64,000 nt of DNA from an uncultured bacterium (GCA_937864225.1 CALMJK010000002.1:67916-131915), one strand, 5' to 3'; positions 12,898 through 64,000 are shown, numbered from the stretch's first letter. Notes: generated by a model from the letters alone, not told the origin. Made by a program: numbers and translations.

Positions 12898-12959
12898 GGG
12901 AACCTCCAAGTCCATCCACGGACGTGCCAGCATGGTCGGGGTGCTCGTTGAATCCGGCT

Positions 12960-15808: not shown

Positions 15809-15864
15809 TGCATTCCTTTCCCGTCCGCCCGCCGCGCTCCGTGCGCGCGCGCGGCGCGGTCTAA

Positions 15865-19063: not shown

Positions 19064-19092
19064 AATATAGAGATTGCCAGAAACCGTGTCAA
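19064..19092 (-). promoter_or_regulatory. near-consensus sigma70 promoter TTGACA-N17-TATATT, followed by a ~200-nt leader before the TonB-dependent receptor ATG
   Basis: Minus-strand read ttTTGACAcggtttctggcaatctcTATATTcaactc. The -35 box overlaps the TGA stop of the upstream ABC ATPase gene. An AT-rich element in a 70% GC background. Confidence 0.5.
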
Positions 19093-32501: not shown

Positions 32502-33307
32502 CCGACAGCGCGCCATTGCGCTGCCCGCAATGCGGCGCGCCCCTGCCCACCACGGCCGGCGGCCTCGACCTGCTCTGCCCCTGGTGCCGCTCCACCGTGC
32601 GCCTGGGCGCGCCGGCCGCGCAACGCGAGCTGCTGCTCGTCGACCGCGGCGACCGCGCCGAGGCCGCCCTGCTGCTCGCGCAGCACCTCGCCGCGCGCCA
32701 CGGCCACGACGCGACCGTGCGCGGCGGCGGCGAGTCGCGCCTGCTGCCCTTCTGGTCGGTGCTCACGCGCGACGGCGACCTGCTCACCGGCCCCGCCACC
32801 GCCGAGGAGCCGCAGCTGCTCGCGCGCCTGACGCTCCCCTCGCTGCCCGCCCGTCCGGTGGCCGCGGCGGAGCTGGCCGGCGTCGAACAGGCCCCGGCCG
32901 ACGTGACGCTCGCGGCCTTCCTCGCCGCGCCCCGCGACGCGCGCGAGCCGGCCGCCGCCGTCGCGCCGGAGCAGGTCGAACGCGCCTGGCTGATCTGGGT
33001 GCCGGTGCGCTGCTGGCAGGTGCGCGTCGGCGGGCGCGCGGTGCGCGCCCTGACCGTCGCGGACAGCAGCGTGCCTGTCCTGGCGCCCCTGCCCGCGCCG
33101 GCGCGGCCGCCGGTGCGTTGGCGCCAGCTGCTCGAACTGGGCGCCTGGTGCGGCTGTCTGGTGCTGGCCGGCCGCCTGTTGCCGCTGGCGCTGCACGTGC
33201 CCGTGGCGGCCGCGCTCGTCGTGGCCGGCCTGTGGGCGTGGCGCCGTCCGATCGGCCGCGGCGCCGGGCAGGCCCTGGGCGCGCCGGGCACGGGAGGCCG
33301 GGGATGA
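32498..33307 (+). CDS. zinc-ribbon protein with C-terminal transmembrane segments (hypothetical), paralog 1
   Basis: ATG overlaps the upstream stop (ATGA). N-terminal CPQCGAPL...CPWC. Hydrophobic C-terminus [35 protein letters not shown]. Confidence 0.6.
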
Positions 33308-34425: not shown

Positions 34426-34447
34426 GCGTGCGGAAGGGGGCGCGACG

Positions 34448-35125
34448 ATGACTTTGGTGCGACTGGCCTGCCCGAACTGCGGCACCGACCTGACGGGACC
34501 GCCCGGCGCGGTGCTCTTCCCGTGCGCGGGCTGCGGGCAAACGTGCGAGGCGGCGGCCGGCCGGCTGCGCCGCGTCGCGACCCGCGCCCTCGCGCCGCGC
34601 CGCGAGGCGCGGGACCGGCGGCTCGTGCACCTGCCGTGCTGGTGCTTCACGCTGACGTGCGTCGCGGACGCGCCTGTCGCGGGCCTGCCGCCCCGCGTCG
34701 TCGTGCCGTCGGTGGGCCCGATGCCCGGCGGCATCTTCCTGCGCCTGGCGCGCGGCCTGAGCATGGCGGCGAAGGGCTGGGCCGCGCCGGCCGTGGGCGC
34801 CTCCGCCGCGGCCCCCGCCGGGGCGCTGCCCGGACGGCTGGGCGTGGCCGACGCCCTGGCCCTGGCGCAGACCGTGGCCCTGGCCTGTGTGCCGGGCACG
34901 GTGCGGGCGGGACTCTTGACCGCCGAGCCTTTCCCGCTGCGGCTGGCGGACGCCGAACTGGTTTGGCTCCCCTGCGCGTTCAACGGCGCCCGCTGCGAGG
35001 ACCTCCTGGTGGGCCTCGACGTCCACGCGCGCCTGCTCGAAGGCGGACAACAGGCGCCTACGGCGCGGCCGGCGCGCCCGCCGGAGGGCGTTCCCGCCGA
35101 CGATCCGGTCGGCGCGCCCCGCTGA
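34448..35125 (+). CDS. zinc-ribbon domain protein (hypothetical), paralog 3
   Basis: N-terminal CPNCGTDL...CAGCGQ. LVHLPCWCF and LVWLPCAF motifs parallel paralogs 1 and 2. Confidence 0.55.
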   Translation: MTLVRLACPNCGTDLTGPPGAVLFPCAGCGQTCEAAAGRLRRVATRALAPRREARDRRLVHLPCWCFTLTCVADAPVAGLPPRVVVPSVGPMPGGIFLRLARGLSMAAKGWAAPAVGASAAAPAGALPGRLGVADALALAQTVALACVPGTVRAGLLTAEPFPLRLADAELVWLPCAFNGARCEDLLVGLDVHARLLEGGQQAPTARPARPPEGVPADDPVGAPR

Positions 35126-35135
35126 AGCGCGGCGG

Positions 35136-35852
35136 CTACCGCGGATCGGCCGTGACGCCGGCGGCCGCCGCCCGCTCGGCGTCGGTCAGCGCCGCGGTCC
35201 CCTCCAACACGGTCATCTTGATGATGCGGATCGGGACGACGGGATTGTCGCCCGCGTCGCGCTGCGCGCCGACGATGCGATCCACCGCGTCCATGCCGGC
35301 GACGACCTGCCCGAAGATGCTGTACTTGTTGTCGAGCGCCGGCGCGTCCGCCACGCAGACGAAGAACTGGCTGCCCGCGGAGTTGGGATCCTGCGAGCGC
35401 GCCATGGAGAGGGTGCCGCGCTGGTGCTCGGCCGTCGGCGAGAACTCTGCCCGCAGCCGCGCCGGCCCGGTCAGGTCGAGGCCCACGTAGCCCCGTTCCT
35501 CCAGCACGCGCGAGGCGGCCTGCACCGCCGCTCGCTCCTGGGGCCCGAGCACGTCCGCCAGCGTGGGCCCGCCCGTGCCGTCGTCGCGCCGCTCGGCGTT
35601 GCGCGTGTTGGGATCGCCGCCCTGGATCACGAAGCCGGGCACCACGCGATGGAAATAGAGGCCATCGAAGAACCCGGCCCGCGCCAGGTGGGTGAAGTTC
35701 CCGACGTGGTGCGGCGCGAGCTCGGGCTGCATCTGGATCAGGAACGAACCCGAGTCGGTTTCGCAGCGCACGAACAGATCCGTCGCTCCGGCCGGCGCCG
35801 CGACCGCGAGCAGGGCGACCAGGACACACACGAGATGCGCGACCAGTTTCAT
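35136..35852 (-). CDS. peptidyl-prolyl cis-trans isomerase, cyclophilin type (secreted)
   Basis: Signal peptide MKLVAHLVCVLVALLAVAAPAGA. FHRVVPGFVIQGGDP...GTLSMARS...NSAGSQFFVC cyclophilin core with an internal insertion. Confidence 0.85.
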   Translation of the reverse strand: MKLVAHLVCVLVALLAVAAPAGATDLFVRCETDSGSFLIQMQPELAPHHVGNFTHLARAGFFDGLYFHRVVPGFVIQGGDPNTRNAERRDDGTGGPTLADVLGPQERAAVQAASRVLEERGYVGLDLTGPARLRAEFSPTAEHQRGTLSMARSQDPNSAGSQFFVCVADAPALDNKYSIFGQVVAGMDAVDRIVGAQRDAGDNPVVPIRIIKMTVLEGTAALTDAERAAAAGVTADPR

Positions 35853-36042
35853 CGTTTTCCTCCGCGTTCACCCGAGCCGGCGCCGGCGAGCGCCGGCGGC
35901 GGCATGCTAGCCGCGCCGGACGCCGACGGCAAGCCCAGCCCTCGCGACGGCGCGCCGCGGCGACCTTGCCCGGTGCACCGCCGAACACCATACTAGGGAT
36001 CCGCGCCGGCGCTCCGGCCAGCCGCCGCCCCGAGGAGGGCCC

Positions 36043-37212
36043 ATGGGCGAACTGCACTACCTCGACAACGCCTCGACCGCCTTCCCGAAGCCGGACCGCG
36101 TTCACGACGCGATGTCCTCCTTCTACCGGAAGCTCGGCGTGAACCCGGGCCGTTCAGGGTACGATCTCGCCATGGAGGCGGGTCTCGTCGTGGACGGCAC
36201 GCGGCGCGCGCTCAACGCGTTCTTCAACAACCCCGCGCGCGATCACAACCGGCTCGTCTTCGCGGCCAACGCTTCCGACGCGCTCAACATCCTGATCCAG
36301 GGCCTGGTGCAGCGCGGCGACCATGTGATCTCGACGCAGCTCGAGCACAACTCCGTGCTGCGCCCCCTCTACATGCTCGAGCAGGCCGGCGTGATCGAGA
36401 CCGACCTGGTGCCGTTCGACGGCGCCGGATTCGTGGATCCCGACGAGATCGCGCGGCGCCTGCGCCCCAGCACGCGGCTGGTCGTCGTCAATCACGGCTC
36501 GAACGTGCTGGGCACCGTGCAGCCGGTCGCCCAGATCGGCCGTCTCTGCCGCGAGCGCGGCGTCCTGTTCGCCATCGACTCCGCCCAGACCGCGGGCGTC
36601 GTGCCGATCGACATGGAGGCGATGCGGATCGACGCCGTCGCCTTCACCGGGCACAAGTCGCTGCTGGGGCCGACAGGCGTGGGCGGCCTGGCCGTGGGGC
36701 CTGACCTGCCGCTGCGCAGCACCCGCTGGGGCGGCACCGGCGTGAAGTCCGCCGTCCGCGCCCACCTGGAGGAATTCCCCCACCGCTGCGAGATCGGCAC
36801 GCTCAACACGTTGGGCATCGCCGGCCTGATGGCGGGCCAAGAGTGGCTGCGCGACCGCGGGCAGGCCGCGATCCGCGCCCACGAGATGGAGCTGACCGCC
36901 CTGTTGCTGGACGGCCTGCGCGAAATCGACGGGCTGACCTGCTACTGCGCCGGCGCCGACGACCGGCATTTGCCCGTGCTGAGCTGCAATCTGGCGGGCA
37001 TCGACGCGGCCGAAGTGGGCACCATCCTCGACGCGCAGTACGACATCGCCGTGCGCGCCGGCCTGCACTGCGCTCCGCTCGTGCACGAGCGCCTCGGCAC
37101 GACCCCCACGGGCGCCGTCCGCTTCAGCATCGGCCCGTTCAACACGAGACAGGACGTGGAGCTCGCGGCACGCGCCATGGGCGAGATCGGCGCGCGCTTC
37201 CCGGCCCGCTGA
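36043..37212 (+). CDS. aminotransferase class V-fold PLP-dependent enzyme (cysteine desulfurase-like)
   Basis: 389 aa. YLDNASTAFPKP...FTGHKSLLGPTGVGGL (PLP-lysine context)...RAGLHCAP. Confidence 0.7.
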   Translation: MGELHYLDNASTAFPKPDRVHDAMSSFYRKLGVNPGRSGYDLAMEAGLVVDGTRRALNAFFNNPARDHNRLVFAANASDALNILIQGLVQRGDHVISTQLEHNSVLRPLYMLEQAGVIETDLVPFDGAGFVDPDEIARRLRPSTRLVVVNHGSNVLGTVQPVAQIGRLCRERGVLFAIDSAQTAGVVPIDMEAMRIDAVAFTGHKSLLGPTGVGGLAVGPDLPLRSTRWGGTGVKSAVRAHLEEFPHRCEIGTLNTLGIAGLMAGQEWLRDRGQAAIRAHEMELTALLLDGLREIDGLTCYCAGADDRHLPVLSCNLAGIDAAEVGTILDAQYDIAVRAGLHCAPLVHERLGTTPTGAVRFSIGPFNTRQDVELAARAMGEIGARFPAR

Positions 37213-52101: not shown

Positions 52102-54132
52102 CTAGGCGCCGCCGCTGCCGGCGATCCCGGCGCCCTCGGCCACCGCCAGCGCCGGGCGTGGCGGCGGTTCCGCGACGGGGGGCGGCGTCGTGGCCAGGCC
52201 GTTGGTCAGGCCCCGGAACGTCGGCACCAGCCCGATCAGCAGGGTCCAGCAGGCGTCCAGATCGCCCGCCTCGGCGGCCGCCAGCAGCCGCCGCACCCGC
52301 GGTTCCAGATCCGGCGGACCCCCCTCGCCGCGCGGGGCGGCCAGGATGCTGGGGTGGGCGGTGGCCTGCGGCTGCTCGGCCTGCGTCCAGAGCTCCTCGG
52401 TCAGCTTCTCGCCGGGGCGCAGGCCCGTGTAGACCACCGGCACGTCCACGTCGGGCACCAGGCCGCTGAGCTGGATCATGTTGCGGGCGAGCTGGTCGAT
52501 GGAGACCGGCTCGCCCATGTCGAGGATGAAGGTCTCGCCGCCGCGGGCCATGGCGCCGGCGAACAGCACCAGGTGCACGGCCTCGGCGATGGTCATGAAG
52601 TAGCGTTCCATGCGCGGGTGGGTGACCGTGACCGGCAGCCCCTGGCGGATCTGGCGCAGGAACAGCTCGACCACGCTGCCGTTGGAGCCCAGGACGTTGC
52701 CGAAGCGGATGGCGCAGTAGCGCCCGGCGGCCGCGTTGCTGCGGGCGCGCACCAGATGCTCGCAGATCCGCTTGCTGGCGCCCATGACGCTGGTCGGGTT
52801 GACCGCCTTGTCCGTGCTGATCAGCACGAACGCCTCCACGCCGTGCCGCTCGGCCGCTCCCAGCAGGTTCAGCGTGCCGCCCACGTTGTTGAGGATCGCC
52901 TCGGCCGGATGGTGCTGCAGCACGGGCACGTGCTTGTAGGCCGCGGCATGGAAGACGATCTCCGGCCGCCGGCGCGCGAACAGCTCGTCCAGGCGCCGCG
53001 GCTCGCGCACGTCGCCCAATTGGAAGTCCAGCGCGACGCCCTCCGCCGCCCGCGCGCGCAGCTCGTGCTCGAGGCGGAACAGTCCGTTCTCGTCGCGGTC
53101 GAGGCAGATCAGCGCGGTCGCTCCCTGCCCGGCGATCTGGCGGCACAGCTCCGAGCCGATGCTCCCGGCCGCGCCCGTCACGAGCACGGTGCGGCCGCGC
53201 AGCAGTTCCCTGATCTGCGGCACGCTGGCCGGCAGGGAGCTGCGCTGCAGCAGGTCCTCGACCCGGAAATCGGAGATCCGTTCCACGACCCGGTTGCTGT
53301 GCAGGATCTGGGCGACGTCGGGGATCGTCTTGAGCGGGACGGCCACCTGCCGGCACAGGCGCGCGATGCGGTACATCTGCGCGGAGGTCGCCGACGGCAC
53401 GGCCAGCACGATGGCCTGGGCCCGGTGGCGCCGCACGACCTCGGCCACGCGCTCGATCGGGCCCACCACGGGCACGCCCATGATCGTCGTGCCCTGCTTG
53501 AGCGCGTCGTCGTCCAGGATCGCCACGGGCCGCCACTGGGCGAGCCGGCGGCCGAACATGGCGCGGATGGTCAGCACGCCGGCCTCCCCCGCGCCCACCA
53601 CGACCACGCGCCGGCGGCCGGGCGCGCCCAGCGCGCCGCGACACTCCTCGCTCACGCGCCACGCGTAGCGCAGCGCGGCCAACAGCGCCAGACACACGAG
53701 CGCCTCGATCGCCAGGACGCCGCGGGGCAGGCCGCCCTGCCCGGTCAGGCGCAGCGCAGCGCCCAGCAGCGCCGAGCCCGTGATGGTCGCGCCCACCAGC
53801 GGCAGCAGATCGCCGGCCCCGGCGTGTCGCCACGGCAGCCGGTGCAGGCGAAAGGCGAGGCAACCCGCCACGCGCGCGCCGATCACCACGGGCAGCGTGT
53901 GCAGCCAGAGGGCGTGCCACGGCTCGCGCAGCCGATCCAGGGGCGAGCTGTCCAGGCGCAGGCAGAAGGTCAGGGTCCAGGAGATCGCCGCGACGGCGGC
54001 GCCCAGGACGATGGTCACGGGCAACCGTCGCGCCCGCAACCAGCGGCTCAGCGCGCCTTCAGGTTGGAAGAAGGAGGCCAAGGCGGCGCCGCCGGCCACG
54101 AGCCCGAGCGCACGGCGCGGTTTGAACTCCAT
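52102..54132 (-). CDS. polysaccharide biosynthesis protein, UDP-sugar 4,6-dehydratase family (PglF/WbpM/CapD-like) with N-terminal membrane domain
   Basis: Start MEFKPRR. Four N-terminal TMs, a Rossmann domain, then VTGAAGSIGSELCRQ...YKHVP...MGASKRICE catalytic motifs. Confidence 0.85.
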   Translation of the reverse strand: MEFKPRRALGLVAGGAALASFFQPEGALSRWLRARRLPVTIVLGAAVAAISWTLTFCLRLDSSPLDRLREPWHALWLHTLPVVIGARVAGCLAFRLHRLPWRHAGAGDLLPLVGATITGSALLGAALRLTGQGGLPRGVLAIEALVCLALLAALRYAWRVSEECRGALGAPGRRRVVVVGAGEAGVLTIRAMFGRRLAQWRPVAILDDDALKQGTTIMGVPVVGPIERVAEVVRRHRAQAIVLAVPSATSAQMYRIARLCRQVAVPLKTIPDVAQILHSNRVVERISDFRVEDLLQRSSLPASVPQIRELLRGRTVLVTGAAGSIGSELCRQIAGQGATALICLDRDENGLFRLEHELRARAAEGVALDFQLGDVREPRRLDELFARRRPEIVFHAAAYKHVPVLQHHPAEAILNNVGGTLNLLGAAERHGVEAFVLISTDKAVNPTSVMGASKRICEHLVRARSNAAAGRYCAIRFGNVLGSNGSVVELFLRQIRQGLPVTVTHPRMERYFMTIAEAVHLVLFAGAMARGGETFILDMGEPVSIDQLARNMIQLSGLVPDVDVPVVYTGLRPGEKLTEELWTQAEQPQATAHPSILAAPRGEGGPPDLEPRVRRLLAAAEAGDLDACWTLLIGLVPTFRGLTNGLATTPPPVAEPPPRPALAVAEGAGIAGSGGA

Positions 54133-54272: not shown

Positions 54273-54896
54273 TCACCGGTCGTCCGGGCCGGTCACGATG
54301 GCGCGCTCCTCGAGCAGGGCCACGATCCGCTCGACGCACTCCCGCGGCGAGAGCCGGTCGGTGTCGAGCACGAGCTCGGCCGCCTGCGGCTCCTCGTAGG
54401 GGGCGCTGATCCCGGTGAACTCGGGGATCTGCCCGGCGCGGGCCTTCTTGTAGAGGCCCTTGGGATCGCGCCGTTCGCACTCCTCCACGGAGCAGCGGCA
54501 CCAGATCTCGATGAACTCGCCCGGCGGCAGCAGCGCCCGGTTGCGATCGCGGTCGGCCCGGTAGGGCGAGATGAAGGCGGTGAGCGCGACGAGGCCGGCG
54601 TCGACCATCAGCTTGGCCACCTCGCCGATGCGCCGGATGTTCTCCTCGCGATCGGCCGGGCTGAAACCCAGGTCGCGATTGAGGCCGTGCCGGACGTTGT
54701 CCCCGTCCAGGATGTAGGTGTGGCAGCCCCGCTCGAACAGCACCTGCTCGACCATGCGGGCCAGGGTGGACTTGCCGCTGCTGGACAGGCCGGTGAACCA
54801 CAGCACGGCGCCCTTGTGCCCGTTGCGCCGCTCGCGATCCTCCCGCCCGACGATCGCCTCGGACCAGGTGATGTGCTTGCTCTTGGGTGCGTCCAT
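54273..54896 (-). CDS. cysC: adenylyl-sulfate kinase
   Basis: Start [30 protein letters not shown]-loop. ...[14 protein letters not shown]... Confidence 0.85.
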
Positions 54897-54975: not shown

Positions 54976-55215
54976 TCAGAGATAACCCAGGGTCTTGAGC
55001 TTGTCCTTGATGCGCTCGAGCTGCTCCCCGCTGAACTCGACGGGCTCGCCCTGCCCCGTCTTGGGCGCCTGCGGCACCCGCCCCTCGTACACGATGTCCC
55101 GCAGCACGAACACCACGAAATCCGTGACCGAATTGAAACCCGACCCCTCGATCAACCGTGATATATGGTCGTAGAGGGGTTTGGGGATCTTGAGGGTGAC
55201 TCGTGGCTGGGGCAT
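54976..55215 (-). CDS. ribbon-helix-helix (CopG/Arc-like) DNA-binding protein
   Basis: About 80 aa from [42 protein letters not shown]. Beta-strand then two helices, typical RHH. Confidence 0.5.
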
Positions 55216-55341
55216 GGCAATCTCCCAGGGCGCCCGGAGCACTCCGAAAACACTCACATAGTAGCCCAAGGAAGACCCGGAATCAAGCGCGATGCGCGAC
55301 GGCGCCGGATCGGGCGGCGACTTCGTTGGCCCTGCGCACCG

Positions 55342-56529
55342 CTATTTCCGGTCGGCAGGCTCGGCCCCCGCGACCCGCGCGTCCCCCGGCGCGGGTACGC
55401 CGATCTTCTGCGCCGCGCGCGCGGCCGCCCTCAAATCCGCCAGCGCCTCGCCGACCGCCCGCACGCCCGCTTCCCTGGCCGCGATGGCGCCGCGCTGCGC
55501 GTGGAAGCGCAGGATCAGCCCGGCGCAGGCCAACGAGAGCAGCACGACCGCGTAGAAACCGGCCGCCGCCCGCCCGCCACTGCCGAGCCCCATGGCCACG
55601 GCCAGCGCGGCGCACGCGAGCATCGCGACCGCGTAACCCGCCGTCACGCCGGTGTGCGAACAGCCCGCGCGCACGAGCAGTTGATAGAGGTGGTCGCGGT
55701 GCGCGTCCCCCAGCCGCTGCCTTCTGAGAACCCTGCCCAGAAGCGTGAAGACTCCGTCGAAGAAGAACGGCCACACCACCAGCAGGGTCAGCACGAACAG
55801 CTGCGGGCGCGGCACGACGCACGACGCGTGCAGCACGCCGAAGGCGAGGAAGAACCCCAGCGGCAGGCTGCCGGCGTCGCCGAGGAAGATCCGCGCCCGG
55901 GGAAAATTGTGGCGCAGGAAGCCGAGGCTGCAGCCGGCCATGGCCATGGCCAGCCAAGCGAAGCCCGCGTCGCCTCCCGCCGCCGTGAACGCCGCCAAAG
56001 CCAACGCCGCCAAGACCGCCTGGAAGCCTGCCAGCCCGTTGATGCCGTCCATGAAGTTGAAGACGTTCGTGAAGCCAACCAGCCACAGCCATGAGAAAAC
56101 GGGGCCCCAGAAGCCCAGATCCACGGCCGGCAGCAGCGGGAACTGCAGCGCCGGCAACGCCAGGTCCCCCAGCCACACCGCCCACGCCGCCGCGCCCCCC
56201 TGCACCAGCAGGCGCGTGGACACGCGCAGGGAAGAGCGGTCATCGAAGAATCCCAGCGCCAGCAGCGCCAGCAACGGGATCGAAAGCGCCAGCCAAGTCG
56301 CGTCCAGCCGCACCCAGCCCAGGCCCAGCAGCGCGACATTCGCCGCCGCGTAGACCGCCAGCACGCTCAGCCCGCCCCCCCGCGGCACGGGCAACTCGTG
56401 CGAGCTGCGCTCGTTGGGGATATCGAGGATCGCATGCGATCGCAACAGACGAATCATGGCCGGCGTCACGGCCATGGTCACGGCGCCCGCAGCCAACATG
56501 ACCGCGATCATCGAAAAGGCGTGTTCCAT
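55342..56529 (-). CDS. UDP-HexNAc:undecaprenyl-phosphate HexNAc-1-phosphate transferase (WecA/WbpL, MraY-like GT4 family)
   Basis: 395 aa polytopic. DDRSSL, NVFNFMDGINGLAG and FLGDAGSLPLGF motifs. Confidence 0.8.
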   Translation of the reverse strand: MEHAFSMIAVMLAAGAVTMAVTPAMIRLLRSHAILDIPNERSSHELPVPRGGGLSVLAVYAAANVALLGLGWVRLDATWLALSIPLLALLALGFFDDRSSLRVSTRLLVQGGAAAWAVWLGDLALPALQFPLLPAVDLGFWGPVFSWLWLVGFTNVFNFMDGINGLAGFQAVLAALALAAFTAAGGDAGFAWLAMAMAGCSLGFLRHNFPRARIFLGDAGSLPLGFFLAFGVLHASCVVPRPQLFVLTLLVVWPFFFDGVFTLLGRVLRRQRLGDAHRDHLYQLLVRAGCSHTGVTAGYAVAMLACAALAVAMGLGSGGRAAAGFYAVVLLSLACAGLILRFHAQRGAIAAREAGVRAVGEALADLRAAARAAQKIGVPAPGDARVAGAEPADRK

Positions 56530-57010
56530 CTAGCCTCCGCCGGCGCCGACTGCTCCCTTAGCCAGCGACACTCCCTTCCCGGCACGCAACAGGTCTAGTC
56601 CACGGTTCTCCTCGACGCCATTATCGCGCCCCCCGCCCATAAGCGGGAGTGTTTTTCAGCGCCCAGGCCGCATCGGGATTTAGCCACGCTTCGAATCACA
56701 ACAACTCTTGCCGCCTTCGCCTTCCGATGTCTGCATGATGAGAGCCAAGACATGTCAACGTAGTTTGGCCAGTTGACCCCGGCAATGGCAAAGTGGCACA
56801 ATGGCCCAGCAGACAATCAAAACCCAGTTAGCATCCTCGTCTGATTGCGAGTGCATACCGAAGGACTTGAAGATCTCGTATCTCCGAGGCCGGCTTCGCT
56901 ATCCGTCCTATAGTGCGAATCAGCTAAACCATGCGCAGGCGTTCGCGCTCATCGTTGCCGCAGAAGTAGCCTTGTTGTCAAATAGACCTCACCATTAAGG
57001 GCCAGCTCCA

Positions 57011-57748
57011 ATGCACACCAAACGAGATCTTGACCGTTACCTGGACGCCGCCGTGCAGGATGGTCTCCATCGCAATAGAAACAACCTTGAGTTCCAGTTA
57101 CACTCACTTTTCGGCAAAATGGATTTCCTGAATAAAGCCGTGTTGGATGTCGGCGGGGGTTCCGGGCTCTACAGTTTTTATGCAGCGCTAATGGGCGCTG
57201 CAAGAGTAGTATGCCTCGAACCTGGAAGTCATGGAAGCTCGTCGGGCGCGATTAACAAATTCAATACAATGAAGCGCACCCTCGATATCAGCAATGTTGT
57301 ACTTATGCCCATCACTCTCCAGTCCTTGAGCACAACGAATGGTACATTTGACATCATTTTACTGCATAACTCCATTAATCACTTGGATGAAACAGCGTGC
57401 ATCAATTTATTAACGCATCCCGCATCCAGAGCGATATACAAAGACATTTTCTTGAAGCTCTATGCGCTGGCTAATGACGGCGCCGTATTGATCATCTGTG
57501 ACTGCTCCAGGCATAATTTTTTCGCGCGGTTGCAAATCCGCAACCCTTTTGCTCCCACAATTGAATGGCATAAGCACCAATCCCCTGAAGTATGGGAGAA
57601 ATTATTGCGCGAGGTTGGTTTTGCTTATCCTCATATATCATGGTCATCGTTCAATACACTACGACGTTGCGGAAAAATTCTGACTGGCAATAGACTTATA
57701 TCATATTTCCTGATCAGCCATTTTTGCCTTACAATGCACAAGACATGA
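57011..57748 (+). CDS. class I SAM-dependent methyltransferase
   Basis: VLDVGGGSGLYSFYAALMGA (motif I). 245 aa. Very low GC (about 42-45%) compared with the 70% flank. Confidence 0.7.
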   Translation: MHTKRDLDRYLDAAVQDGLHRNRNNLEFQLHSLFGKMDFLNKAVLDVGGGSGLYSFYAALMGAARVVCLEPGSHGSSSGAINKFNTMKRTLDISNVVLMPITLQSLSTTNGTFDIILLHNSINHLDETACINLLTHPASRAIYKDIFLKLYALANDGAVLIICDCSRHNFFARLQIRNPFAPTIEWHKHQSPEVWEKLLREVGFAYPHISWSSFNTLRRCGKILTGNRLISYFLISHFCLTMHKT

Positions 57749-57814
57749 TGGCGTTAGTCAGATGGCCCACGAGCCTTAAGTGAAGGCAGAATATCGGAGT
57801 GGAAGGGATCAGAC

Positions 57815-58630
57815 ATGGATGATCGTTCAACGGCAATAAGGATGCGGGAGAAGCAATACCACGATGCCTTCTATGCCGGGGATTCTCCACTCCCTGAAGT
57901 GGTCATAGCCGAGGTGAGGGAACTGTCCTTGAAACCCTGTTATCAGACAGGGAGAGACAAGTACTCAGATAACAAAATGGCCTTTCACGAAATCATCCAC
58001 CGGGATGGCGGATGGAGCGGCAAGCACGTTTTGGACTATGCGTGCGGACGAGGCTCTTGGGCCATCTACTATGCCCTCACCGGGGCTCAACGGGTGCAGG
58101 GCTTCGATATCTCTGAGACCGCTATACAGCGCGGGCGCGAGCGAGTAGAACGTCAAGGTCTCGCGGATCGCGTGGATTTAAGGGCCATGGATGCTGCGCG
58201 GCTTGATTACGAAGATGAAACCTTTGAGATGGTTATCGGAACTGCTGTTTTGCACCACGTCATAAAGTACCCACAGGTCTTTGAAGAACTCCATCGCGTG
58301 ATGGCCCCAGGCGCCAAGGCGTATTTCTTGGAAGGGCTAGCGGATTTTCCGCTTTTCCGCCTTTGGTGGAAAATCAAGGGAGAAGTACCCCAAGGGGACG
58401 TCCCCATCTTCTCGCGAGACATCCATGAAAAGGCCTCGATGTTCTCGAAAATTGTCATCCATGGTGATACGTTTCTCTATTCGGCAAAGACGATGCTTTG
58501 GAAGCCATCAATGGGGCGTGGCCGCAAGTCTCTTCTGAAAGTGCTTAAGGCGATAGATACTTTCCTTTTTCGGGTTTGTCCTGTTCTGCGTCGATGCGGG
58601 AGCTTCTCCTACATCGTTTTGACAAAATAG
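57815..58630 (+). CDS. class I SAM-dependent methyltransferase
   Basis: VLDYACGRGSWAIYYALTGA (motif I)...MVIGTAVLHHV. 271 aa. Confidence 0.7.
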   Translation: MDDRSTAIRMREKQYHDAFYAGDSPLPEVVIAEVRELSLKPCYQTGRDKYSDNKMAFHEIIHRDGGWSGKHVLDYACGRGSWAIYYALTGAQRVQGFDISETAIQRGRERVERQGLADRVDLRAMDAARLDYEDETFEMVIGTAVLHHVIKYPQVFEELHRVMAPGAKAYFLEGLADFPLFRLWWKIKGEVPQGDVPIFSRDIHEKASMFSKIVIHGDTFLYSAKTMLWKPSMGRGRKSLLKVLKAIDTFLFRVCPVLRRCGSFSYIVLTK

Positions 58631-58724
58631 CTCGGTCCGTAGCCTGTCTCACCGCAGCGACTCGCTGTGCGGGCGGGGAATGTCTGGATGACTCTGATCC
58701 CCTTGACATGGTCGGCAAACCGCC

Positions 58725-60095
58725 ATGGCGTTCGAAATTAAAAAGCGCATCTACGACTCGCTACCCGCGAGCGTGCAGTCGCTGGTCGGGCTTGTGCCTT
58801 TTGCCTGGCTGGCCGGGCAGTCCTATCGCCGGACGATGGCTCGGGGACGGTTCTTCGAAACCGCCTCGCGCAAGGACGTGCGTGCCTATCAGGAACGCAT
58901 GCTCGGCGCGATGCTGGATTTCGCCACGTCTGAAGTCCCCGCCTATCGCAAACACCGCTCTGCAGTTGAGAGACTCTCGCCATTCGAGGCGCTCAAGGAG
59001 TTTCCTCCGCTGAACAAAGAGGATGTCCAACGGGACTTCGAAAGCTACCTGCCCAGAACTCTCCGACACATTCCCCACTACGAGATCTCTACCGGCGGCA
59101 CGAGCGGTGACCGCCTCCGCCTGTACGTCGACGACGTGTCACAGTCCGTGGAAACCGCCTTCGTGCATCGCGTATGGAGTCACGTCGGCTATACACCGCG
59201 CGCGCGGAAGGCGACCTTCCGTGGCGTCACGTTTCGGGATTTTCCACCCGACGTCTATTGGCAAGCCAACCCCATTTACAACGAACTTCAGTTCTCGCCC
59301 TTTCATATGAGCGAGAAGACTTTGGATCTCTATGCCAGAGCCCTGATCCGATACGTTCCCCGATACCTTCACGGCTACCCATCGGCCATCGATTATCTTG
59401 CCTCACACATGCTTCAGAACGCCATGTCCGCGAACATGCCTTCGATTCGCGCGGTTTTCCTGACTTCGGAGGCCTGCACACCGGCGCAACGTCAGCGAAT
59501 CGAACAGGCCTTCCGAACCAGGGTCTTCCCCCTGTACGGACACAGTGAACGTCTCATTCTTGCCGTTGAATGCGAACACGCGCAGGTCTACCACCACGTT
59601 CCTGACTACGGCGTGCTGGAAATCTTCGCCGAGGACGGAACGTGCTGCGAAGAGGACGGACAGCGAGGCGAACTCGTGGGCACCGGCCTCTTGAATCGGT
59701 CGATGCCCCTCATTCGGTACCGTACCGGCGACTACGCCACGAGACGGGCATATGCATGCGCGTGCGGTCGCAATTGGGACCGCTTCGCGGAACTCGAGGG
59801 GCGCTGGAAACAAGATATGCTGCTCGGCAAAACAGGATCACGGATATCCATCACGGCGCTCAACATGCACGGGTCGGTGCTCGAACATGTCGGCCGCTTT
59901 CAGTACAGACAAACAGAGCCAGGGCGTTGCTCGCTCCGCGTGGTGCCCGCCGTCGGCTTCACAGATGCCGATGTAGCCAGAATCGAAGAGGCGTATCGCG
60001 CCAAAGTGCGCGATGAATTGGATGTCGTCGTCGAAATCGTCGGCAGCATCCCCCTAACAGCCAGGGGCAAGCTCAAGGCGGTTGTCCGGGAGTGA
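58725..60095 (+). CDS. adenylate-forming enzyme, phenylacetate-CoA ligase / CapK / coenzyme F390 synthetase family
   Basis: 456 aa. ISTGGTSGDRLRLYV (AMP-binding motif), YGHSERL, IRYRTGDYA, LTARGKLKAV. This family is typical of capsule and O-antigen modification loci. Confidence 0.7.
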   Translation: MAFEIKKRIYDSLPASVQSLVGLVPFAWLAGQSYRRTMARGRFFETASRKDVRAYQERMLGAMLDFATSEVPAYRKHRSAVERLSPFEALKEFPPLNKEDVQRDFESYLPRTLRHIPHYEISTGGTSGDRLRLYVDDVSQSVETAFVHRVWSHVGYTPRARKATFRGVTFRDFPPDVYWQANPIYNELQFSPFHMSEKTLDLYARALIRYVPRYLHGYPSAIDYLASHMLQNAMSANMPSIRAVFLTSEACTPAQRQRIEQAFRTRVFPLYGHSERLILAVECEHAQVYHHVPDYGVLEIFAEDGTCCEEDGQRGELVGTGLLNRSMPLIRYRTGDYATRRAYACACGRNWDRFAELEGRWKQDMLLGKTGSRISITALNMHGSVLEHVGRFQYRQTEPGRCSLRVVPAVGFTDADVARIEEAYRAKVRDELDVVVEIVGSIPLTARGKLKAVVRE

Positions 60096-60243
60096 TGGGC
60101 GATCAACCACACGATCAGGGCCACCGCGTGCGCTGATTCCTTAGGCATCCGCTTCTTGGACTGTCGCGAAAGTGCGGATTCAAGACCTGCCGCCACGATG
60201 CCCAAGCCGGGGCCGTGCCGGCACTTGACACGCTTTCCGCACC

Positions 60244-63015
60244 ATGCTTGAGTTCGCGATCGTGGCCGCAACCAAGAAAACGTCAGGCGTTGACGCCCCG
60301 CCGCTCGATCAAGAACCAGCGGCACGCATTCTTTTGCTCGGCCCCCAGACCAATCGCCGCAATCCCACCATCACGGGCGGCACGGTGGCCTTTCACGAGA
60401 CCATGCGGGAGTATCTCAGCTCTCGATGCGATCTATCTGTGCACTGCATCGACACGAATAAGGTCAATTATGGCGGAAGACTCAAGGCGGCGCTGGCGAT
60501 CTTGCATCAGGGGATCAGCGAAATGCGCGCCGCTGAGGTTCTGTTTATCAACGGCAGCGCCAATGATTATCTGTTTCTCGCGCCCCTGCTCGTGGCCCGC
60601 GCGCGACAATTGGGCGTAAAAACTGTGTTGCGTAAGTTTGCCGGCGACTTCGACCAGCGTTACGCGCGTTGGCCTCGCCCCGCTCGGGCTGTGGTTGCCC
60701 GCATGCTAAGAGCGGCGGATGTGCTCTTCTGGCAGACCCGCAATTTGGTGGAGTTCGGGAAACTCTTCAATCCGATCAGCCTTTGGTTTCCCAATGTGCG
60801 TCCAGAACCGCCGGCTGCGCTCATAAAGACAAGACCGCGTTTCGAGCGCCGTTTCGTTTTTGTCGGCCATGTGGTCCGCGAGAAGGGCATGGCCGAGCTG
60901 AAAGCCGCGGCTGAAAAGTTGCCGGAAAGCTATTCCGTCGACGTGTACGGCCCGCTTATGGATCCGGAGATAGATGCAGCCTGGTTCGCTGGCTCGCGCA
61001 TCGTCTATCGCGGCGCGGTGCCGCGCGAGCAGGTTCTGGCCCGCCTGGCCGAGTATTCCGTGCTGGTGTTGCCTTCATGGCGCGAGGGGCACCCTGGCAT
61101 CATCATCGAGGCACTTTCCTTGGGTTTGCCCGTGGTTGCCACGCGCGTTGGCGGCATCCCGGAGCTTGTCGAAGACGGCGTCAACGGCTTTCTCGTCGAA
61201 CCGCGTGACGCGGAGGCTTTGCGTAAGGCCATGCTGCGCATCGGAGATGAAAACTACGCCACGCTTTCCGCCGCGGCGCGCAGCACCTTTTCGCAGTTTG
61301 AGAGCAAGTCCGTCTATGATCGGTTTTTCGAGCAGGTCGTAGCGCTGGCGGCCGTGGCCAGGGGAAATCAGCGTCGCAATCGCGAGGACAGGGCGAGGCC
61401 AAATGCGTTTCGCCCTCTTGTCGGCACCCGCGACTGTGTGAGACGCGGCCTGCGTCTTTTTGAAACCGTGCGTTGGTTGAAACCCCGTCAACTCCTGGCC
61501 AGGATTCTGCGCCTCGTTCGCCTGCGCCTGGGTTTGAACCGCTTGCGTCCCGCCAAGGCCCCCGGGGTCACTCTGCTGAGACTCGGGGAAGGCTTGCCGG
61601 TGCGAGAGAGTTATCGTGAGGGCGTTTTTACATTTCTGAATCGGGCCGAACATTTCACCGATGGCATTGATTGGGAATGCGGCAGACATGGCCGGCTATG
61701 GACCTACAATCTGGGATACTTCGATTTTCTGCGGCAGCAAGACATGGGCCGTGAGGAAGGGCTTGCGCTGATACGCGACTTTCTGCGCGATCTCCCGGCT
61801 CGCACGACCGCTCTCAACCCCTACCCTCTATCCTTGCGCGGCGTGAACTGGATTCGTTTCCTATCCCGCTGGCAGGTGCAGGATCACGAAGTGCTAGACG
61901 CTCTTTATGCCCAGTACCGCCATCTGCACCGCAACGTCGAGTACCACCTGATGGGTAATCATCTGCTTGAGAATGCGTTTTCGCTGCTCTTCGCGGGACA
62001 GTTCTTTGGTGAGCATGCATTTGGCCGCACGGCCGCTCGACTTCTACGCGGGCAGTTGGCTGAACAAATCCTGGATGACGGAGCCCACTTCGAGTTGTCA
62101 CCCATGTATCACTCCATAATCCTGGAACGGCTATTGGACGCAAACGATCTGCTGACTCATAGCCACACGCCAGACCCCGGGCTCGCCACGATTCTAAGAA
62201 ACAGCGCATCCTCCATGGCTAGCTGGCTAAGACAGGTCACCTTCTCAGACGGTAGCTTGCCAGCCGTCAACGACACCGTCCAAGGCATCGCGTCCAGTCC
62301 CGCCGACTTGCTGGCCTACGCAGACAGTCTCGCCATCCAACCCGACGATAAACCGCTTGGCTCATCCGGCTATCGCATGTTCAGAAAAATTGCGTACGAA
62401 GCGTTCGTCGATGTCGGTCACATCGGGCCTGACTACCAGCCGGCGCATGCACACAGCGACACTCTGAATCTGCTGCTCCAGGCCCACGACCAACCGTTTA
62501 TCGTGGATACCGGCATCTCCACCTACGACGATTCTCCGCGGCGCCGGCATGAGCGCGGCACGGCAGCCCACAACACGGTCGTCGTGGACGGCGAGGAACA
62601 GAGCGATCTGTGGAGCGCGTTCCGCGCCGGCCGCCGCGCCAAGATCGTTCATTTGCGCGAAAGATCAGACCACGTCTCAGCTATCCATGATGGGTATCGA
62701 CGGCTTGGCTGTCTTCATAGCCGCGAGCTTCGCTTCGGCGATAATGAGATTCAACTTGTCGACCGGCTCGAGTCAAGCGGCGGGCATGTCGGCCAGCATG
62801 CGGGCCTGGCTCGCTTCCACCTGCATCCCGATGTTCGGGTGCACAAGCGCGATGCCACATCCGTTCACACAAGTCTCGGCGCATTTGTTTTCGCTGGCCA
62901 CGCGGATCTGTCCATCCAAGAGTACGAGTGCTGCAACGGGTACAACTGCCGTCGCTCGGCCAGCGTTCTGTTGGTCAATTTCCGTGGCACACTGCGAACC
63001 AAGATTTCGGTTTAG
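60244..63015 (+). CDS. two-domain protein: N-terminal GT4-family glycosyltransferase fused to C-terminal heparinase II/III-like domain
   Basis: Single 923-aa frame. GT4 C-terminal motif EGHPGIIIEALSLGLPVVATRVGGIPELVEDGVNGFLVEP. Downstream ...NHLLENAFSLL...SPMYHSIILERLL...GPDYQPAHAHSDTLNLLL...HNTVVVDGEEQS fits Hepar_II_III. Start codon uncertain. Confidence 0.65.
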   Translation: MLEFAIVAATKKTSGVDAPPLDQEPAARILLLGPQTNRRNPTITGGTVAFHETMREYLSSRCDLSVHCIDTNKVNYGGRLKAALAILHQGISEMRAAEVLFINGSANDYLFLAPLLVARARQLGVKTVLRKFAGDFDQRYARWPRPARAVVARMLRAADVLFWQTRNLVEFGKLFNPISLWFPNVRPEPPAALIKTRPRFERRFVFVGHVVREKGMAELKAAAEKLPESYSVDVYGPLMDPEIDAAWFAGSRIVYRGAVPREQVLARLAEYSVLVLPSWREGHPGIIIEALSLGLPVVATRVGGIPELVEDGVNGFLVEPRDAEALRKAMLRIGDENYATLSAAARSTFSQFESKSVYDRFFEQVVALAAVARGNQRRNREDRARPNAFRPLVGTRDCVRRGLRLFETVRWLKPRQLLARILRLVRLRLGLNRLRPAKAPGVTLLRLGEGLPVRESYREGVFTFLNRAEHFTDGIDWECGRHGRLWTYNLGYFDFLRQQDMGREEGLALIRDFLRDLPARTTALNPYPLSLRGVNWIRFLSRWQVQDHEVLDALYAQYRHLHRNVEYHLMGNHLLENAFSLLFAGQFFGEHAFGRTAARLLRGQLAEQILDDGAHFELSPMYHSIILERLLDANDLLTHSHTPDPGLATILRNSASSMASWLRQVTFSDGSLPAVNDTVQGIASSPADLLAYADSLAIQPDDKPLGSSGYRMFRKIAYEAFVDVGHIGPDYQPAHAHSDTLNLLLQAHDQPFIVDTGISTYDDSPRRRHERGTAAHNTVVVDGEEQSDLWSAFRAGRRAKIVHLRERSDHVSAIHDGYRRLGCLHSRELRFGDNEIQLVDRLESSGGHVGQHAGLARFHLHPDVRVHKRDATSVHTSLGAFVFAGHADLSIQEYECCNGYNCRRSASVLLVNFRGTLRTKISV

Positions 63016-63017
63016 CA

Positions 63018-63908
63018 ATGCAACATGTCCTGATCATTGGAGCGACTGGATTCACCGGCCGCTATGTGCTGGATGAACTGTCGCGCTCGGGCCGATACGA
63101 TATCAGCCTGTTTGTGCGCGATCCGGCCAAGTTGTCTTTTTTGCCGACCGCCTCCGGGCGCAGAGTTCACTATGGAACAATAGAGGATATAAAGGCTCTT
63201 ACGGCCGCTCTGCGTGGTGTCGAAATTCTGGTGTGCACCGCATCTCTTGGCTTCGGTCACGCGCCGAATCTCCTGCAGGCCTGTCACGACGCATCCGTAC
63301 AACGAACCATCTTTTTTAGCACTACCGCCATCTTCACAAGGCTGAATCCGCCATCCAAGAAACTGCGCCTCGCCGCGGAAACGGCTATACAGGCGAGTGG
63401 GCTCGATTATACGATTCTCCGTCCCACGATGATCTATGGCGCGCGCGGCGACCGCAATATTTTCCGCCTCATCCGCTATATCGACCGCATGCCCATCATT
63501 GTCATACCCGGCCGGGGCCACAATCTGTTGCAGCCCGTTTTCGTGAAGGATCTCGCAATGGCGGTGCGCCAAATCCTGGCAGAACCGTCGACAATTGGGA
63601 AATGCTATACGCTTTCAGGACGCGATGTCATTCCCTTTGGCGACCTCGTGCGCTACTTGGCTTCCGCCCTTGAACGACGACGTATGTATTTGCATATCCC
63701 AATCTGCCTAGCTACCGCGCCCCTGTCGGTTTTGAACGCATGCGGCCTTCGCACGCCCATAAAGGTTGAACAGATTTTGCGCCTCCAAGAGGACAAGACA
63801 TTCTCTTTCGATGAGGCCGCCAACGATTTCGGCTACGCACCATCTTCCCTCGCTGAAGTTCTTCAAGCCGAGGTGGCCGAATATCTAGGCGACACTGGAC
63901 GGGCATAA
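63018..63908 (+). CDS. NAD-dependent epimerase/dehydratase family protein
   Basis: MQHVLIIGATGFTGRYVL Rossmann GxxGxxG. 296 aa. ATG 3 nt after the upstream stop. Confidence 0.8.
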   Translation: MQHVLIIGATGFTGRYVLDELSRSGRYDISLFVRDPAKLSFLPTASGRRVHYGTIEDIKALTAALRGVEILVCTASLGFGHAPNLLQACHDASVQRTIFFSTTAIFTRLNPPSKKLRLAAETAIQASGLDYTILRPTMIYGARGDRNIFRLIRYIDRMPIIVIPGRGHNLLQPVFVKDLAMAVRQILAEPSTIGKCYTLSGRDVIPFGDLVRYLASALERRRMYLHIPICLATAPLSVLNACGLRTPIKVEQILRLQEDKTFSFDEAANDFGYAPSSLAEVLQAEVAEYLGDTGRA

Positions 63909-63910
63909 TC

Positions 63911-64000
63911 ATGAAGATCTGCATTATTACCCACTACTATCCGCCAGAGATTGGAGCGCCGCAGGCGCGCCTTTCGGAAATGGCACGCGCGTGGGTCAAG
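63911..64000 (+). CDS. GT4-family glycosyltransferase, 5' partial (continues beyond window)
   Basis: MKICIITHYYPPEIGAPQARLSEMARAWVK is the characteristic N-terminal HYYPPE motif of WcaI/WbuB-like GT4 enzymes. Confidence 0.6.
   Translation, partial: MKICIITHYYPPEIGAPQARLSEMARAWVK

Follow-up and report, generated by a model that had tools for sequence, protein, structure and literature searches.

The 64,000-nucleotide window studied here (uncultured bacterium, GCA_937864225.1, CALMJK010000002.1:67916-131915) ends inside a low-GC block of seven genes, which begins at position 56530 and, as read from conspecific contigs, closes at ~66403, ~2.4 kb past the window end. The block forms the centre of an apparently complete Wzx/Wzy-type exopolysaccharide (EPS) or capsule (CPS) locus, where the repeat unit is specified, and it was probably acquired horizontally, by recombination without site-specific machinery. 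The host is an uncultured bacterium with a GC content of ~70%, probably of the FCB group. An initial annotation, made from the sequence of the window, had described an abrupt compositional break and had read it as the edge of a horizontally acquired polysaccharide cassette. The break is real and sharp, being evident from GC profiles, third-codon-position GC (GC3), codon usage and tetranucleotide usage, and the acquisition is supported by composition, by the discordant relationships of two of the genes and by the native GC content of the same type of locus in relatives. Positions beyond 64,000 are given below as window-equivalent coordinates.

Since most long open reading frames (ORFs) are spurious in sequence of such high GC content, genes were picked by codon-position GC and then confirmed with Pfam and NCBIfam. 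The 1-kb GC profile runs at 0.60-0.78 as far as 56 kb and at 0.47-0.61 over the remainder of the window from 57 kb on, while the 200-bp profile places the step down within 56401-57000 and the minimum (0.42-0.46) at 57201-57800. The GC content is 0.705 (70.5%) for positions 1-56529 and 0.567 for the in-window part of the block (56530-64000), and the lowest 7.47-kb window upstream reaches 0.628. The whole block (9,874 bp) has a GC content of 0.562, with 0.705 to its left and 0.704 to its right. The GC3 values of the 40 genes outside the block (0.84-0.96, mean 0.91) do not overlap with those of the 7 block genes (Mann-Whitney p = 3e-5), in which GC1 and GC2 are also shifted. The Karlin-type codon-usage distance B from the core is 0.50-0.87 for the block genes, with a core mean of 0.24, and the sole core gene with a comparable distance (0.555) is an ORF of 79 codons. 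The correlation of tetranucleotide usage to the core falls from 0.72-0.93 elsewhere to 0.54-0.68 in the block, whose junctions and genes are as follows:

56530..57010, no strand: left junction, divergent intergenic region, 481 bp; GC falling from ~0.65 to ~0.50 (50-bp profile)
57011..57748, plus strand: MT1, class I S-adenosylmethionine (SAM)-dependent methyltransferase, 245 aa; GC 0.455, GC3 0.51; weak Pfam methyltransferase matches
57815..58630, plus strand: MT2, SAM-dependent methyltransferase of the UbiE/Methyltransf_11/25 type, 271 aa; GC 0.52, GC3 0.58; Pfam 1e-19
58725..60095, plus strand: CapK/PaaK-like adenylate-forming ligase, 456 aa; GC 0.59, GC3 0.70; Pfam AMP-binding (weak) and CapK_C
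60244..63015, plus strand: fusion of a GT4 glycosyltransferase (GT) and a heparinase II/III-like protein (GT4::heparinase), 923 aa; GC 0.60, GC3 0.68
63018..63908, plus strand: SDR-family NAD(P)-dependent epimerase/reductase, 296 aa; GC 0.55, GC3 0.61; Pfam NAD_binding_10 and Epimerase
63911..64000 in the window, on to window-equivalent 65179, plus strand: GT4b, WcaI-like GT4 glycosyltransferase, 422 aa; GC 0.545, GC3 0.66
65224-66354, window-equivalent, minus strand: GT4c, GT4 glycosyltransferase; TTG start, GC3 0.60
66355-66403, window-equivalent: right junction, between GT4c and wzy

Both edges of the block are step functions that coincide with gene boundaries. At the right edge the in-frame GC3 rises over ~50 bp, being 0.55 in the first 40 codons of GT4c and 0.88 in the last 40 of wzy; at the left edge it drops from 0.80-0.88 (5' end of the WecA-family gene) to 0.60 (start of MT1) over the 481-bp divergent intergenic region. 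This region is the same or almost the same in all strains, contains no gene remnant detectable by blastx, and presumably carries the promoters of both divergent operons; promoter-like matches within it occur at chance frequency, and the promoter and terminator searches were negative or at chance level. The range of 45-55% GC given by the initial annotation fits MT1 (0.455) and MT2 (0.52) and is too low for the other block genes (0.55-0.60); the flank beyond 64 kb, which it suggested inspecting, contains the second boundary.

The gene identities proposed initially held up against Pfam and NCBIfam. MT1, the gene with the lowest GC content in the block, belongs to an uncharacterised and widespread family of ~960 homologues, which are mostly exactly 245 aa long and ~60% identical. 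MT2 and the CapK-like gene are a conserved pair. The CapK-like protein matches the DVU_1553, FlxY and PaaK-like families of NCBIfam, all under cut-off, as well as phenylacetate-CoA ligases in the PDB (4e-12), and the best of its 1,493 homologues (73% and 71% identical) are found in polysaccharide loci. The fusion protein comprises Glycos_transf_1/Glyco_trans_1_4 at residues 201-334 and Hepar_II_III_N and Hepar_II_III_C (Pfam, 5e-13 and 6e-46) at residues 552-915, with weak matches to heparinase III in the PDB; the two heparinase domains assign it to the polysaccharide lyase family of heparinase II/III, whose fold does not by itself tell a lyase from an epimerase. A word-indexed protein search had made it appear an orphan, a notion rejected after an exhaustive HMMER search, which identified for its C-terminal half a large stand-alone family of ~525 aa (36-46% identity, 3,012 hits at E <= 1e-30) with a few other GT fusions, which are rare; a metagenome contig search with the fusion returned one weak match. 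In three of the syntenic loci described below (L092, L095, L099) the counterparts of its two parts are encoded separately, a GT being 34-37% identical to the N-terminal part and a protein of ~570 aa 32-34% identical to the C-terminal part. The start codon of the fusion gene at 60244 is ATG in the window, whereas L003/L008 and L009, representing two other strains, have GTG. The SDR protein is matched at the generic family level only; it is a likely 4-keto reductase partner of the PglF-like dehydratase of the native flank. GT4b, whose complete gene is present on two conspecific contigs (L001, L007), matches the WcaI family of NCBIfam (7e-57, under cut-off). The true start of GT4c is a TTG codon followed by a typical GT4 N-terminus, RILCLTENLGQGGAE; GT4b and GT4c form a convergent pair inside the block. 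All 3 recognisable glycosyltransferases of the locus (three GT4 domains) lie within the low-GC block. In PADLOC, the SAM domains of MT1 and MT2 gave partial matches to mad2 and the other block proteins gave none, a Pfam GT4-conflict match was below cut-off and stands in a context of polysaccharide synthesis, not of defence genes, and the PHROG phage-family search of the block gave generic SAM and GT domain matches only.

The block is set between two native runs, both on the minus strand. The left run consists of pnp, rpsO, the PglF-like gene, the APS kinase gene, a 79-aa ORF and the WecA-family gene, and the right run of wzy, wzx, wzz and wza:

52102..54132, minus strand: PglF/WbpM/CapD-like membrane-anchored UDP-HexNAc 4,6-dehydratase, 676 aa; GC 0.74, GC3 0.95; Pfam Polysacc_synt_2 (6e-106) and CoA_binding_3
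54273..54896, minus strand: adenylyl-sulfate (APS) kinase, 207 aa; GC3 0.96; Pfam APS_kinase (6e-67), NCBIfam NF003013 (301 bits, cut-off 163)
54976..55215, minus strand: small ORF, 79 aa; present among the gene calls of the source assemblies, no Pfam or NCBIfam match
55342..56529, minus strand: WecA/WbpL-family polyprenyl-phosphate HexNAc-1-phosphate transferase, initiating, 395 aa; GC3 0.90; Pfam Glycos_transf_4 (8e-36)
66404-67693, window-equivalent, minus strand: wzy, 429 aa; GC3 0.85; weak Wzy_C match, no NCBIfam match
67681-69240, window-equivalent, minus strand: wzx, 519 aa; GC3 0.94; Polysacc_synt (PF01943), no NCBIfam equivalog
69233-70165, window-equivalent, minus strand: wzz, 310 aa; GC3 0.94; Wzz/GNVR, NCBIfam chain-length determinant below cut-off
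70199-72586, window-equivalent, minus strand: wza, 795 aa; GC3 0.96; Poly_export and SLBB, NCBIfam EpsE/PEP-CTERM exporter below cut-off

The WecA-family, APS kinase and PglF-like genes, described initially as native-looking, do have the GC3 of the core (0.90-0.96); within the WecA-family gene the in-frame GC3 stays at 0.80-0.97 all along, to the start codon, and it is uniform along both wzx and wzy. The closest NCBIfam families are PseB/FnlA-like for the PglF-like protein (under the equivalog cut-offs) and WecA/MraY-like for the WecA-family protein (below cut-off); their genes lie 1.2 kb apart on the same strand. With the WecA-family enzyme, Wzx, Wzz/Wza and three GT4s all present, most parts of a Wzx/Wzy-type locus are there, and a candidate Wzy is given by a weak Wzy_C match; the place of the Wzy-like protein between wzx and the GTs favours a polymerase. 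No tyrosine-kinase domain was seen. GT4c, which starts ~50 bp after wzy in the same orientation, is probably co-transcribed with the native wza-wzz-wzx-wzy run. Because the other boundary adjoins native-GC wzy-wzx-wzz-wza and the block holds all 3 recognisable GTs, the block is to be seen as a replacement of the central region rather than as an add-on. It occupies the centre of an apparently complete native Wzx/Wzy locus, and the earlier description of a cassette inserted at a conserved initiating-enzyme locus has to be revised in this respect. The APS kinase has no homologue in any of 80 WecA loci searched with tblastn, and despite its presence in the native flank no sulfotransferase is visible in the 22 kb of the locus. 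Past wza there are two adjacent paralogous ORFs of native GC content (L007:16354-17528, window-equivalent 72734-73908), of 208 and at least 197 aa, which have in common an 84-nt stretch at 70% identity; the 208-aa one has no match in Pfam or NCBIfam and the other none in Pfam.

Neither an integrase nor a transposase nor a phage gene was found among the called genes at ~44-74 kb, so that the initial statement that no integrase or insertion sequence lies inside the window extends to 10 kb beyond it. ARAGORN detected no tRNA or tmRNA (0 genes), no pair of direct or inverted repeats brackets the block, and the window contains no Rfam family. Judged as an integrase-mediated genomic island, the block lacks an integrase or recombinase, a tRNA/tmRNA site and flanking direct repeats.

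The locus proteins were compared by tblastn with the 80 WecA loci, which come from GTDB representative genomes; no WecA relative above 47% identity was found in these representatives. One of the nearest loci (L018) has M16-pnp-rpsO-PglF beside WecA, with PNPase 69% and S15 74% identical, and three others of 71-72% GC (L012, L015, L019) have Wza 56-60% and PglF 53-57% identical. In all four the PglF homologue (50-57%) lies beside WecA (41-47%), the polysaccharide loci are at the native GC3 of ~0.9, and the block genes are absent at >=50% coverage, except for weak GT4c-like matches in L015 and L018. Possession of a polysaccharide locus at this position of the chromosome seems to be an ancestral trait of the lineage, unlike the low-GC centre; as the four relatives are distant (phylum or class level), this comparison is a weak version of the test for conserved flanks with a different centre. 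L018 shows its own drop to ~0.59 GC (GC3 0.64-0.74) at 16000-20000, ~6 kb past WecA, with ORFs that have no Pfam match.

The closest homologues of the CapK-like protein (73%, 71%) and of MT2 (71-75%) belong to syntenic loci of ~66% GC throughout (GC3 0.78-0.87), with the order Wza-Wzz-(sulfotransferase)-Wzx-phosphodiesterase-Wzy-GT4-GT-MT2-CapK-heparinase II/III-like-2-epimerase-DegT-C5-epimerase-like-WecA-like. In two of them (L092, L095) the MT2 homologue, 71-75% identical, is directly upstream of CapK, and in the third syntenic example, of 64% GC, CapK is 62% identical; one cluster member is labelled Candidatus Eisenbacteria. The heparinase II/III-like protein, the CapK-type ligase and MT2 always occur together in these loci, and, compared with their colinear order, the central segment studied here is inverted, reordered and fused. 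Since the syntenic loci and the loci of the nearest relatives are at native GC, the low GC content is not intrinsic to these families or to the locus. A sulfotransferase is present in one syntenic locus (L095:1669-2604) and a glucuronyl C5-epimerase-like gene in four (L092, L094, L095, L099), which hints that this locus type may make sulfated or epimerised acidic polymers.

Pairwise identities revealed a discordance between MT2 and CapK on the one hand and the remaining proteins on the other. MT2 and CapK are 72-75% and 71-73% identical to their counterparts in L093 and L095, as much as L093 and L095 are to each other (75%, 78%). For Wza, WecA and the GT and heparinase-like parts of the fusion, by contrast, the identity to those lineages is 28-37% (28-36% for Wza and WecA), as against 57-86% among the lineages themselves. 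CapK is not an intrinsically slow protein, as a comparison of L093 with L099 gives 64% for CapK and 67% for both Wza and WecA. The MT2-CapK pair thus has a history different from that of the native flanks and of the rest of the block, and the discordance supports transfer independently of composition. MT1 is absent from the syntenic loci L092-L099, and its homologues are GC-poor singletons in unrelated neighbourhoods. Two of these, 245 aa long and ~60% identical, were inspected (L097:8001-8738 and L098:8001-8738): one, of 0.49 GC in a contig of 0.61-0.65 GC, lies downstream of type I restriction and ImmA/IrrE-like genes, and the other, of 0.46 GC in a genome of 0.49 GC, near an integrase and a transposase. 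The methyltransferase family of MT1 may be widely mobile, and the gene itself was probably added separately. At least three histories are combined in the mosaic of the block (MT1; MT2-CapK; GT4::heparinase-SDR-GT4b-GT4c), in keeping with gene GC contents that range from 0.455 through 0.52 to 0.55-0.60, and of the single island proposed initially it is the foreign origin that stands and the unity that does not. On the Muto-Osawa and Lawrence-Ochman regressions, the codon-position GC of the block is roughly that of equilibrium genes in genomes of 50-60% GC, and by that measure there is no clear sign of amelioration.

Homologues of GT4b (32-49%) and of the SDR protein (38-44%) directly adjoin a WecA-family gene in six loci (L022, L031, L034, L045, L055, L058) of Chloroflexia, Polyangiaceae, Verrucomicrobia, Singulisphaera, Iamiaceae and Limisphaerales, at ~7800-14200 in each and at 3082-6037 in L034. 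A PglF-like gene precedes or follows in 2 of the six; in L022 it follows. The combination GT4b-SDR-WecA looks like an initiation module conserved between phyla.

Conspecific contigs were found by exact-protein look-ups (CapK, SDR, WecA, the MT1 variant and APS kinase) in ENA assemblies (ERZ781235-243) and Logan runs (SRR5468104-108), essentially one population or study series; they are 99.0-99.95% identical to the window at the nucleotide level. The cassette is the same in all those that reach the block, which come from 8 samples. The APS kinase protein is identical in 12 conspecific contigs and, being identical in all strains, its look-up lists distinct neighbourhoods separately; all 3 of the 12 that read past WecA continue into MT1, and 7 stop inside WecA or the 79-aa ORF. 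Thus, the cassette is fixed in the sampled population, with no alternative neighbours of WecA, and the label "serotype-variable" of the initial annotation finds no support; what varies are allelic patches of single-nucleotide polymorphisms (SNPs).

The differences between strains, of which many are non-synonymous, are clustered in short dense patches that occur in native as well as in foreign genes. The fusion gene is the most polymorphic of the block: it has 18 differences in 78 bp at 60480-60557 (23% divergence), 19 in 169 bp at 61341-61509 and further patches at 60122-60420 and 60772-61030, one strain shows 36 non-synonymous and 17 synonymous differences in it, and the allele of the window differs from all recorded strains in an exact-sequence look-up. 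Other patches were located in MT1 (57049-57151, 10 differences in 103 bp), MT2 (58255-58468) and the SDR gene (63293-63363), as well as in GT4c, Wza, PglF and the 5' half of WecA. In the spacer between the 79-aa ORF and WecA (55216-55341, ~126 bp) the window differs at 13 positions from all 6 other crossing contigs, and four further contigs end in or just before it (55196-55266); it seems to form a short intergenic stretch of hypervariable sequence beside the cassette, on the native side. The patches coincide with assembly break points and look like short recombination tracts from diverged alleles, to which a strain-chimeric consensus of the metagenome could contribute. A recent sweep, considered on account of zero SNPs in MT1-MT2-CapK of six contigs, was rejected, as another contig (L101) has patches in MT1 and MT2 and patches occur also in native Wza, WecA and PglF. 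The low coverage of two 4-kb contigs (L004, L005) could be taken to point to cassette-less strains; allelic bubbles at SNP patches fit better, and no empty-site contig was found.

Several other origins of the block can be envisaged. Its genes could have been inherited vertically and have drifted to low GC in place, by way of less recombination and GC-biased gene conversion in a strain-specific segment, or of selection for rare codons and low expression. The same set of parts (Wza, Wzz, Wzy, GT4, GT, CapK, the heparinase-like protein, WecA) makes up a conserved type of locus in other uncultured lineages, so that these genes would be expected here, the block is devoid of mobility genes and att-like repeats, the cassette is fixed in all sampled strains, and the SDR-GT4b pair is about as distant from the copies of other phyla as WecA and PglF are, i.e. 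without discordance. We nevertheless regard such decay as quite improbable, since it would have to account for a compositional step within ~50 bp between two co-oriented genes, for a shift of GC1 and GC2 and not of GC3 alone, for the strong discordance of MT2-CapK, for the native GC of the homologous loci of relatives and for a central segment that departs from the canonical colinear order by rearrangement, inversion and fusion; the SNP patches, moreover, show that the block recombines. Still less probable is a classical mobile element (an integrative island, an integrative and conjugative element or a prophage remnant) that entered site-specifically and has since lost its mobility genes. The sharp compositional boundaries would agree with it, as would the neighbours of MT1 homologues elsewhere (integrase, transposase and restriction-modification genes), but the block and ~7.5 kb beyond it are devoid of integrase and transposase genes, of tRNAs and of flanking repeats, whether direct or inverted, PHROG and PADLOC found generic SAM and GT domains only, all 7 genes are of polysaccharide-pathway types that fit both flanks functionally, and the convergent pair has one arm that continues the native wza-wzz-wzx-wzy direction. 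An assembly or binning chimera of two organisms might be suspected from the metagenomic source and from the several assemblies that break in or beside the block. It is excluded for practical purposes, because both junctions are spanned by independent assemblies (both by L001/L102, the left one by L006, L101 and L110, the right one by L007-L009): they are contiguous at 99.0-99.95% identity in different samples and two pipelines (ENA, Logan), one 516-kb contig spans the entire block, and the assembly breaks coincide with the allelic SNP patches.

Horizontal acquisition of the central region remains the best explanation, with a number of points that tell against it. The compositional background consists of 40 local genes, many of them housekeeping, in ~74 kb of genome. 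Among the contigs that reach the block there is no empty-site or alternative-cassette strain, so that cassette exchange at the locus is deduced, not observed. The fusion, SDR, GT4b and GT4c proteins have no relative above ~49% identity, and no donor was found, the closest homologues of MT2 and CapK being in contigs of 66% GC and not of 50-60% GC. As the NCBIfam matches are all below the equivalog cut-offs, the functional names hold at the family level only. Finally, native wzx and wzy beside a wholly foreign set of GTs are unusual, as these two are normally the most atypical genes in enterobacterial loci (PMC3715488).

The nature of the product raises a separate question, as the locus might instead specify a lipopolysaccharide O-antigen or a protein-linked glycan, with the 429-aa Wzy_C protein acting as a WaaL/PglL-type ligase or oligosaccharyltransferase. 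The Wzy_C domain of Pfam is common to O-antigen ligases and PglL-type O-oligosaccharyltransferases, and the match of the 429-aa protein to it is weak; in addition, the GT4 part of the fusion has PglA, from the protein-glycosylation pathway of Campylobacter, as its closest match in the PDB, and a PglF-like dehydratase is present. This alternative is unlikely in our view, as a Wza/OPX exporter and a Wzz/GNVR co-polymerase are co-oriented in one run with wzx and wzy, the best NCBIfam matches of Wza and Wzz are EPS export and chain-length proteins, and no PglB-type transferase was seen. An exported polymer is favoured because Wza and Wzz are present, and the "glycoprotein modification" of the initial annotation lacks specific support.

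The following scenario, in which the roles of the proteins are deduced from family membership and gene neighbourhood, can be proposed for the acquired centre of the EPS/CPS locus. Foreign DNA would have taken the place of the central genes in a resident Wzx/Wzy locus beside rpsO-pnp, at once or stepwise, by a recombination like that described for O-antigen loci (PMC3715488, PMC4600120), the components coming from donors of probably ~50-60% GC. The native genes would then represent the generic machinery, for initiation on the left and for flipping, polymerisation, chain-length control and export on the right, while the 9.9-kb foreign block would contribute everything that specifies the repeat unit. 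The PglF/WbpM-like dehydratase together with the SDR protein of the block may provide a 6-deoxy-HexNAc-type first sugar (QuiNAc/FucNAc), which the WecA/WbpL-family enzyme would load onto undecaprenyl phosphate; this proposal is made because SDR and GT4b adjoin WecA-family genes in six loci, two of them with PglF, and because wbpK-wbpL-wbpM is a counterpart (PMC6804347). GT4b, GT4c and the GT4 part of the fusion are predicted to lengthen the unit. A uronic-acid residue is the probable target of the heparinase II/III-like part, the CapK-type ligase and MT2, which would modify it by C5 lyase- or epimerase-type chemistry, adenylation-dependent amidation or esterification, and methylation, whereas MT1 could add an extra methyl group or be unrelated. 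The native APS kinase hints at possible sulfation, and native Wzx, Wzy, Wzz and Wza would flip, polymerise and export the product. A bolder proposal, to which we give little credence at present, is that GT-MT2-CapK-heparinase represents an undescribed uronic-acid tailoring set for a bacterial glycosaminoglycan-like, possibly sulfated polymer, combining lyase-fold C5-epimerisation and methylation with adenylation-dependent amide or ester formation; a foreign, rearranged and fused copy of it would here stand beside a native APS kinase, as part of a cassette that re-specifies the repeat unit still handled by the resident Wzx/Wzy. No usable literature was found on heparinase II/III-like or CapK-like proteins in biosynthetic loci.

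Two other regions of the window are compositionally distinct. A second, milder low-GC stretch on the minus strand (8953-18996, 0.60-0.65 GC) encodes two ~965-aa proteins with PorZ-like C-terminal domains of the type IX secretion system (T9SS), a TonB-dependent-receptor-like protein of 1043 aa and, at 11965-12933, a member of the PorV family. Since its GC3 is still 0.85, this dip is an effect of the amino-acid composition of T9SS-type outer-membrane proteins on GC1 and GC2, not of foreign codon usage, and the presence of T9SS parts suggests an FCB-group host. At 32500-35100, ~2.6 kb of 77-78% GC with a strong negative AT skew show no frame with the usual GC3 > GC1 > GC2 pattern and only trivial tandem repeats, and none of the candidate ORFs there, including one of 1376 aa (31975-36105), has a Pfam match.

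The locus is a clean, well-bounded case of polysaccharide-locus remodelling by horizontal transfer in a very GC-rich uncultured lineage of the FCB group, in which such loci have hardly been examined, and it draws attention to a widespread uncharacterised MT2-CapK-heparinase-like module (>1,400 CapK-family homologues, with a gene order shared by the three closest loci examined). The phenomenon itself is textbook, and neither this module nor the foreign GT set beside native wzx and wzy changes the current understanding. The syntenic loci (L092-L096, L099) are the closest in content, having the same parts list with a core of GT-(MT2)-CapK-heparinase II/III-like between Wza-Wzz-Wzx-Wzy and the WecA-family gene (MT2 71-75%, CapK 62-73% identical). 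They differ in being colinear on one strand at a GC3 of ~0.8, in having separate GT and heparinase-like genes and no MT1, and in the additional UDP-GlcNAc 2-epimerase, DegT aminotransferase, C5-epimerase-like gene and, in L095, sulfotransferase; no characterised member of this locus type was found in the literature. With integrase islands at tRNA genes the block shares atypical composition and sharp boundaries, but it has no integrase, tRNA or direct repeats, and its content is functionally integrated with both flanks.

In the O-specific antigen (OSA) clusters of Pseudomonas aeruginosa, highly divergent GTs are placed between conserved borders, wzz/ihfB and the wbpM dehydratase gene, whole clusters are replaced by recombination with wbpM as a hot spot (PMC6804347, PMC4600120), and the SDR reductase wbpK, WecA-family wbpL and dehydratase wbpM form one module (PMC6804347). 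The present case is similar in the high-GC genome, in a Wzx/Wzy-dependent locus at a fixed position, and in the PglF-like and WecA-family genes, which form a native border with SNP patches and match the order of wbpL-wbpM. OSA clusters are reportedly of low GC content as well. The differences are that wzx and wzy are here on the native side and not in the variable part, that the SDR gene is foreign, apart from WecA/PglF and on the opposite strand, that Wza is present (suggesting EPS/CPS rather than O-antigen), and that there are no alternative cassettes among strains. Compared with O-antigen, OSA and K-locus cassettes in general, the atypical composition is present, strain polymorphism is absent among the sampled contigs, and wzx/wzy are outside the atypical part. 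The rfb region of Salmonella offers the other precedent: its contiguous segments of differing, atypically low GC have been interpreted as transfers from lower-GC sources with separate histories or stepwise assembly, the segments becoming more native in character towards the flanks (PMC3715488). As in rfb of Salmonella enterica and E. coli, where exchange proceeds by homologous recombination in the flanks, there are no integrases; the host GC is 70% as compared with 51-52%, the absolute GC3 contrast is larger (~0.3), and the block differs from the known cases in its convergent gene pair and its GT::heparinase-like fusion. In the present locus only the GTs and modifying enzymes are foreign, with wzx and wzy native (GC3 0.94 and 0.85), and this combination of a foreign GT and tailoring set with a native flippase and polymerase is the reverse of the enterobacterial pattern, which bears on how strict the substrate specificity of Wzx and Wzy is.

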